Assembly: GCF_003334765.1 (NCBI RefSeq)
Contig: NZ_QOWT01000137.1
Reading direction: 5' to 3' (one strand)
Length of the DNA stretch: 334 bases
DNA from: Escherichia coli
GTDB lineage: Bacteria > Pseudomonadota > Gammaproteobacteria > Enterobacterales > Enterobacteriaceae
In this document: piece after piece, positions 1 through 334 of the stretch
Position numbering within the stretch: the first letter of the stretch is position 1
How the letters are laid out: every line of letters starts with the position of its first letter
Notes under the pieces: model-generated
What the model saw: only the letters and a program-made list of their open reading frames with translations
What the model was told of the DNA's origin: nothing
The model's database searches: none
Position numbers and translations under genes: made by a program

Positions 1-30
1 CCGGCTCTGCCATGGGAGGATTGCCAATGA
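1..30 (+). CDS. citD: Citrate lyase acyl carrier protein (gamma subunit), 3' end only; 5' part lies upstream of the window
   Basis: Frame starting at base 1 translates as P-A-L-P-W-E-D-C-Q followed by TGA at 28-30. This matches the C-terminus of E. coli CitD as I recall it (...[11 protein letters not shown]). Position immediately upstream of and overlapping citE fits the known citCDEFXG gene order. Confidence 0.8.
14..20 (+). promoter_or_regulatory. Shine-Dalgarno / ribosome-binding site for citE, embedded in the citD 3' coding sequence
   Basis: GGGAGGA at 14-20 is strongly complementary to the 16S rRNA 3' end (anti-SD CCUCC). It sits 6 nt upstream of the ATG at 27-29, which is near-optimal spacing. 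Confidence 0.7.
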
Positions 31-334
31 TTTCCGCTTCGCTGCAACAACGTAAAACTCGCACCCGCCGCAGCATGCTGTTTGTGCCAGGTGCCAATGC
101 CGCGATGGTCAGCAACTCATTCATCTACCCGGCTGATGCCCTGATGTTTGACCTCGAAGACTCCGTGGCATTGCGTGAAAAAGACACAGCCCGCCGCATG
201 GTTTACCACGCGCTGCAACATCCGCTGTATCGCGATATTGAAACCATTGTGCGTGTAAACGCGCTGGATTCCGAATGGGGTGTTAACGACCTGGAAGCCG
301 TCGTTCGCGGTGGTGCGGACGTTGTGCGTCTGCC
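27..334 (+). CDS. citE: Citrate lyase beta subunit (citryl-ACP oxaloacetate-lyase / citryl-CoA lyase, HpcH/HpaI aldolase-citrate lyase family), 5' part only; continues past the window end
   Basis: ATG at 27-29 preceded by a strong SD. The frame is open through base 334, giving 102 codons plus a partial codon. The translation matches the N-terminus of E. coli CitE as I recall it, including the family-typical RRSMLFVPG and FDLED motifs. Other + frames contain stops (TAA 53, TGA 134, TGA 142, TGA 176, TAA 256, TAA 284). Confidence 0.92.

Follow-up and report, generated by a model that had tools for sequence, protein, structure and literature searches.

Citrate lyase is a complex of alpha6-beta6-gamma6 stoichiometry, and trpB-trpA is a translationally coupled, overlapping gene pair with an ATGA junction. 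The subunits of the Leuconostoc citrate lyase have reportedly been subjected to N-terminal sequencing. In a search of the literature and of PDB homologues, we found no structure of a citrate lyase complex and no role assigned to the conserved Arg that precedes strand β1 of the beta subunit, CitE. In malyl-CoA lyases, the N-terminal segment differs in length (residues 2 to 29 in MCLC and 2 to 15 in MCLR), lies mostly outside the barrel, and leads into β1; it limits the movement of the neighboring subunit's C-terminal lid, and its conservation is clade dependent (Zarzycki & Kerfeld 2013, PMC3832036). The R-S that stands before β1 in these enzymes aligns with R15-S16 of E. coli CitE. Unlike CitE, malyl-CoA lyases act on free CoA thioesters, without an ACP partner.

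The stretch of DNA that we analyzed (the window, 334 nt) is the citD/citE junction of the E. coli citrate lyase operon. On its plus strand, as for every feature described here, it carries the 3' end of citD, which encodes the acyl carrier or gamma subunit (positions 1 to 30, frame 1, ending in PALPWEDCQ and the stop codon TGA at 28 to 30), followed by the first 102 codons of citE, which encodes the citrate (pro-3S)-lyase beta subunit or citryl-ACP lyase (27 to 334). As in coupled ATGA pairs such as trpB-trpA, the stop and start codons share 4 nt and the Shine-Dalgarno (SD) sequence lies inside the upstream open reading frame at optimal spacing. At citD-citE, this overlap with its SD in the upstream gene is conserved across 80 species and joins two subunits of one stoichiometric complex. 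The evidence makes it very probable that citE starts at the ATG at position 27 (ATG27) in an ATGA junction, that residues 12 to 16 belong to the core of the protein, residues 9 to 11 to a clade-specific extension, and residues 2 to 8 to a leader, and that the in-frame ATG at 75 to 77 encodes an internal residue, Met17.

The citD-citE junction and the start codon of citE

The window gene is E. coli CitE itself (b0616, 302 amino acids, RefSeq WP_000622357.1), from which it does not differ. In an NCBIfam profile scan, the full protein matched the TIGR01588 equivalog with 452.1 bits (cutoff, 443.4), and in the RefSeq locus (L001) the gene stands in the order citC-citD-citE-citF-citX-citG adjoining dpiBA. 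The AlphaFold model of CitE (mean pLDDT, 96.5; pTM, 0.91) has a CitE-like β8/α8 TIM barrel with a C-terminal lid, and its best Foldseek matches were malyl-CoA lyases, CLYBL, and Mtb CitE (TM, 0.73 to 0.88). Given its family membership, the protein would have citryl-ACP oxaloacetate-lyase activity within an alpha6-beta6-gamma6 complex. Of 5426 complete E. coli genomes, 5422 contained a match to the window, several of them at 100% identity, and the allele in the window is a minority one: 241 of the 5422 genomes match at 99% identity or more, and the remainder lie between 95 and 99%. Separately, the 5422 genomes hold 5463 places that match the window, so that it occurs twice in approximately 41 genomes, with two of the additional copies on plasmids. 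A promoter and terminator scan of the window found none.

RefSeq annotation of L001 places citD at 3234 to 3530, ending at window position 30, and begins citE at window position 27. The start codon ATG (27 to 29) overlaps the citD stop by 4 nt as ATGA, and it is preceded by the SD GGGAGGA (14 to 20), the core GGAGG of which (15 to 19) ends 7 nt before the ATG and lies within the citD codons for Trp-Glu-Asp. The energy of the duplex with the 3' tail of 16S rRNA (the anti-SD) was -10.2 kcal/mol for ATG27 and +1.9 kcal/mol for ATG75. The 15 nt upstream of ATG75 are CGCACCCGCCGCAGC, in which there is no purine run.

We compared this arrangement in 80 species-level loci (from Escherichia, Citrobacter, Salmonella, Providencia, Edwardsiella, Serratia, Klebsiella, Hafnia, Buttiauxella, Yersinia, Haemophilus, Aggregatibacter, and others), walking the CitE frame upstream from the R-R-S motif in each. 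In nearly all of them, an ATG or GTG that follows an SD overlaps the citD stop, by 4 nt (ATGA or GTGA), 1 nt, or, in Serratia, 17 nt. The mean anti-SD energy was -9.5 kcal/mol for the upstream start and +0.5 kcal/mol for Met17. Upstream and in frame, 80/80 loci had a start whose SD paired at -4 kcal/mol or better, whereas the Met17 ATG reached this energy in only 3/80. Most of the loci have GGAGG or GGAG at a spacing of 5 to 8. Among the 36 species with 16 codons before Met17, codon 1 is GTG in 7, and therefore the position is kept as a start and not as a Met residue. The ATGA overlap also requires that codon 2 begin with A, in keeping with the amino acids found at residue 2 (I, T, M, K, N, and S).

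The sequence-only reading had placed the start at ATG27, 16 codons before an in-frame ATG at 75 to 77, with GGGAGGA at 14 to 20 and no SD before position 75, and had favored the upstream ATG. Its statements about the sequence were all correct, and its choice of start agrees with the RefSeq annotation, the SD energies, the overlap across 80 species, and the codon constraint described below; the lack of an SD at Met17 likewise extends to nearly all of the wider set of loci. By comparison among species, the start-site question appears to be essentially settled. The gene start is ordinary, correctly annotated, and already known, at a textbook overlapping junction, and the significance of this result is small beyond annotation hygiene: the database start of a well-known gene is right.

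Several features of the junction had gone without mention in that reading, namely, the overlap of ATG27 with the citD TGA at 28 to 30, the placement of the SD within citD codons, and an in-frame ATG at 12 to 14 and TTG at 21 to 23. The SD is encoded by citD codons 92 to 95 (P-W-E-D), and when read in the citE frame it yields the GG that recurs in the pseudopeptides upstream of citE. The other junctions of the L001 operon are a 14-nt gap (citC-citD), a 10-nt gap (citE-citF), a 3-nt gap (citF-citX), and a 26-nt overlap (citX-citG); the 4-nt ATGA overlap occurs at citD-citE only.

In the mechanism that we propose, the GGAGG in the last citD codons, with its 7-nt spacing, directs initiation of citE at ATG27. 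The start/stop overlap and the SD inside the upstream gene are both present, the ATGA overlap is a classical arrangement for translational coupling, and from this arrangement we infer that translation of citE is coupled to that of citD. Such coupling would suit the production of equimolar gamma and beta subunits of citrate lyase.

Published data on initiation are consistent with this mechanism. In INRI-seq, a synthetic citE fragment contained both ATGs (Hör et al. 2022, PMC9825163); in codons 1 to 16, the window does not differ from the K-12 sequence given in the oligonucleotide table of that study. The annotated citE translation initiation site (TIS) gave a peak in one of five replicates (5.19), short of the study's threshold of two of five, and was not called (PMC9825163). 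The complete table of nonannotated TISs (Table S3) has no entry for citE, and the in vivo Ribo-RET value for citE, as tabulated in Table S2, is 0, the operon not being expressed (PMC9825163). These data weakly favor ATG27 and are compatible with a dependence of citE on citD translation, at which the weak stand-alone initiation of the fragment, in one of five replicates, may hint. We found no citE N-terminal peptides in the supplements of the TRAINSPOTTER N-terminomics and the Salmonella riboproteogenomics studies.

The residues before Met17

Next, we examined constraint on the codons between ATG27 and Met17. Nei-Gojobori dN/dS was 0.37 for codons 2 to 8, 0.21 for codons 9 to 16, 0.087 for codons 12 to 16, and 0.056 for codons 17 to 300. 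Codons 2 to 8 (positions 30 to 50, encoding ISASLQQ) form a weakly constrained, lineage-variable leader in which amino acids vary and in-frame insertions and deletions separate genera; the AlphaFold model predicts a short helix at residues 4 to 11, and the mean pLDDT of the first ten residues is 86. Codons 9 to 16 (51 to 74, encoding RKTRTRRS) form a conserved basic segment that runs into β1. Of the 36 loci with 16 codons before Met17, all have R12, R14, R15, and S16 and 34 have R9, while the codons for these conserved Arg and Ser residues (9, 12, 14, 15, and 16) vary among as many as four synonyms (CGC, CGT, CGA, and CGG). The retention of amino acids through synonymous changes, together with the low dN/dS, implies that the stretch before Met17 is translated. 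In addition, length differences between genera amount to whole codons, and no in-frame stops interrupt the segment.

K/R residues account for 5 of the 16 N-terminal residues, all within residues 9 to 15, and this is the densest basic seven-residue window of CitE. The same density was reached by 6.4% of protein shuffles, so that the composition is only mildly unusual and the significance of the segment comes from its conservation rather than from composition alone.

The conserved core had been said to begin at Met17. Against this, CitE residues 12 to 299 align to TIGR01588 profile positions 1 to 288, the R-R-S that immediately precedes Met17 does not vary among 81 enterobacterial and Pasteurellaceae loci, an alignment of 88 diverse CitEs shows R15 conserved at 90% or more, and strand β1 of the AlphaFold model spans residues 16 to 21 (positions 72 to 89). 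The conserved CitE core is therefore one that begins at approximately residue 12 and not at residue 17. Residues 12 to 16 (R-x-R-R-S) belong to the CitE fold and lead straight into β1, residues 9 to 11 extend the basic patch in the E. coli-type clade, and residues 2 to 8 are the weakly constrained leader. The Met17 column of the 88-protein alignment has no majority residue. In solved homologues, the alignment runs through the R-S and the Met17 position is V, W, or E (1sgj, LRSVLF; 3qll, TRSWLF; 5ugr, HRSELAVPG). Because β1 occupies residues 16 to 21 and R15 is nearly invariant, a protein that started at Met17 would begin within β1 and lack R15. The core boundary should be useful for the design of expression constructs and N-terminal tags, since cutting at Met17 loses a nearly invariant Arg and enters β1.

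The Arg/Lys-rich part of the 16-residue extension, to which the sequence-only reading had drawn attention, is residues 9 to 16 and hence the conserved part; lineage variation is confined to residues 2 to 8. The length before Met17 does differ by lineage, as had been proposed: in close orthologues it is 16 residues in E. coli, Citrobacter, and Salmonella and 15 in Atlantibacter, and it is 12 in Providencia, Edwardsiella, Klebsiella oxytoca, and Serratia, 10 in Haemophilus and Actinobacillus, and 8, 7, or 6 elsewhere. Across these length classes, the segment (R)K-x-R-x-R-R-S is constant while residues 2 to 8 change. The end of citD relative to the R-R-S motif largely sets the length of the leader and so gives rise to the classes of 16, 15, 12, 10, 7, and 6 residues. 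Among 65 standalone CitE representatives, the median number of residues before the R15 equivalent was 4 to 5, and only three had 14 or more; by this count of sequences, E. coli CitE is at the long end of the family.

The short Klebsiella form MKPRRSMLF, which the sequence-only reading had named, is real. It is the Klebsiella variicola/pneumoniae-type CitE (P0312, 289 amino acids, 1364 member sequences), which begins MKPRRSMLFIPGAN. This protein is 64% identical to E. coli CitE, to which it aligns from its residue 2 (residue 12 in E. coli) onward, with R-R-S-M-L-F in both; it has 6 residues before the Met instead of 16 and thus is without the 10 extra residues of E. coli. It represents a distinct short-leader clade of 289 to 291 amino acids with the N termini MKPRRS, MKKLRRS, and MSKLRRS. 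A second CitE paralogue in Salmonella is also of the Klebsiella type and begins MRPRRSMLF.

One locus in the comparison carries a label at odds with its sequence. CACSKA010000002.1 (L037), labeled Chryseobacterium sp. 18061, has an Enterobacteriaceae-type citD-citE junction and a CitE that is 84% identical to that of E. coli, and its leader closely resembles the one in "Citrobacter sp. 18056" (L034) from the same study. This assembly is probably mislabeled or contaminated.

Other starts and a targeting signal

The alternative that survives best is dual initiation, in which ATG27 and ATG75 are both used to give full-length CitE and a 286-residue truncated form. We consider it very improbable. 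In its favor, the Met17 ATG is invariant in 81/81 enterobacterial and Pasteurellaceae loci, but protein conservation within the clade explains this, and other CitE family members have L, R, W, or V at the position. Initiation that does not depend on an SD reportedly exists in E. coli, and the annotated citE site initiates only weakly in INRI-seq; on the other side, ATG75 has no SD (3/80 loci reach -4 kcal/mol), INRI-seq Table S3 holds no nonannotated citE TIS, and the truncated product would lack the nearly invariant R15 and start inside β1. Thus, neither a ribosome-binding signal nor, in INRI-seq, a TIS peak was found for internal initiation at Met17, and the Met17-truncated product does not make a plausible folded functional unit.

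The opening energy of the mRNA at AUG75 is no worse than background, which could also be counted for dual initiation. In the native 400-nt context, however, the two AUGs could not be told apart by opening energy (13.5 and 15.4 kcal/mol versus a background of 15.4 ± 3.7 kcal/mol), and because both values are near background we dropped mRNA structure as evidence between them. The RNA of window positions 1 to 100 folds less well than its shuffles (z = +2.64), with a local hairpin at 61 to 94 around AUG75.

A start further upstream, at the in-frame ATG at 12 to 14, is less probable still, and we give it very little credence. Before ATG27, 31 codons of the citE frame run through citD without a stop (L001 3434 to 3526), E. 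coli and some Citrobacter have an in-frame ATG at this place, five codons ahead of the start, and one database call (P0050, 307 amino acids) begins five codons upstream with MGENTMISSS. This ATG is incidental: it is made by the citD codons CCA-TGG, so that it depends on CCA being used for the Pro before the Trp TGG, and many species lack it or have CTG, GTG, or TTG in its place. It has no SD upstream, it sits within the SD of ATG27, and the peptide GGLP that would follow is that SD read in the citE frame.

The comparative evidence refutes a misannotated start, in which Met17 would be the true start and the 48 nt upstream an untranslated citD-citE spacer. A few database calls do begin at Met17 or the next residue (P0113, P0117, P0178, P0213, P0246, P0139, and P0141). 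The only one of these that we examined in DNA, P0113, results from a 1-nt deletion in a poly-A run, and P0117 has the same length and N terminus, while P0178, P0213, and P0246 are short fragments of 227 to 261 amino acids. Codons 9 to 16 are conserved through synonymous variation with dN/dS below 0.4 throughout the stretch, lengths differ by whole codons without in-frame stops, and R-R-S is part of the curated family profile.

The P0113/P0117 leader (L083 1466 to 1500; also L082 and L084) is Moellerella/Providencia-like, with the poly-A run of its R-K-K codons one A short; the leader is frameshifted, and the gene is called from Met17 (286 amino acids). It occurs on eight contigs from several ERR59xxxxx samples. 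The missing A may reflect an error in sequencing the homopolymer, or the variant may be real, either inactivating or of a phase type.

A twin-arginine targeting signal in place of an enzyme segment is effectively refuted: the likeness of T-R-R-S-M-L-F...A-N-A to such a signal (a basic n-region, RR, the hydrophobic MLFVPGA, and A-N-A at residues 23 to 25) is superficial and falls short of S/T-R-R-x-F-L-K with a 12- to 20-residue hydrophobic region and A-x-A, since the NCBIfam scan returned no Tat-signal model, the hydrophobic stretch of approximately 7 residues is β1 of a cytoplasmic TIM barrel that is conserved in every homologue, including crystal structures, and the segment is internal in CitD-CitE fusions.

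CitD-CitE fusions and the basic segment

The basic segment is part of CitE, and natural fusions bear on what it might do. Single open reading frames that join CitD to CitE (gamma-beta; PF06857 plus PF03328), of approximately 380 to 428 amino acids, account for about 21 to 25 of the 150 CitE representatives at 50% identity (including P0128, P0134, P0140, P0147, P0155, P0176, P0226, and P0253; loci L085 to L090). All eight fusions that we tested matched both the citrate lyase gamma-subunit/CitD model and the CitE model. The two with genomic context checked were each found on more than one independent contig and were followed by citF. One of the fusions, P0128, was identical in at least four samples; citF follows it, a LysR regulator and an Iso_dh-family gene are nearby, and its linker before RLRRS is K/R rich.

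In these fusions, the equivalent of the E. coli leader and basic patch is an interdomain linker that is K/R rich and ends in (L)RR(S/T). The K/R content of the linker before (L)RR(S/T) was 28%, against a background of 12%, in the 21 fusions measured. K/R enrichment at bacterial N termini is partly a general codon-level effect. Because a K/R-rich linker is kept where the segment is internal, the charge is not just such an N-terminal codon effect. This retention suggests, with lower confidence than we place in the coupling of citE to citD, that the basic patch has a role at the protein level.

In E. coli, the net charge is -4 for CitD, -12 for CitE residues 17 to 302, and +5 for CitE residues 1 to 16. 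The most likely role of the basic patch would be to make electrostatic contact with CitD, which is acidic, or with its prosthetic-group phosphates, because the K/R-rich segment is retained even as an internal CitD-CitE linker. R9, K10, and R12 are not needed in every CitE, since the short types (MKPRRS..., MRRS...) work with only two or three basic residues. A more specific version is doubtful, though it deserves mention: the leader and basic patch may be the equivalent of the fusion linker, a positively charged arm that docks or guides CitD, or the phosphates of the 2'-(5''-phosphoribosyl)-3'-dephospho-CoA group, to the active site of the beta subunit. If true, each clade would have a leader length adjusted to how its citrate lyase complex is built. 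The natural fusions through a basic linker at this place, which occur in many lineages, offer a modest handle for structural work on the citrate lyase holo-complex.

The fusions are single polypeptides, whereas E. coli citD and citE are separate and out of frame. Neither a slippery X XXY YYZ heptamer nor a homopolymer run of 5 or more was found in E. coli citD, and we therefore rejected programmed frameshifting to a CitD-CitE fusion in E. coli. A fusion needs no SD for its CitE part, and in the one fusion linker that we inspected the SD is absent. Five E. coli-like "fusions" of 394 to 400 amino acids (P0001, P0002, and P0006 to P0008) are single-member clusters that read through the open citE frame, and we take them to be indel artifacts. 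Two Klebsiella pneumoniae proteins of 384 to 385 amino acids (P0307 and P0310, named "citrate lyase subunit beta" by NCBI) have a CitD domain joined to CitE through the 3' end of citD read in the citE frame. P0310 is on 34 contigs, one of them of 5.38 Mb, and the pair looks like the product of a citD frameshift that created a truncated-CitD/CitE fusion in a real lineage.
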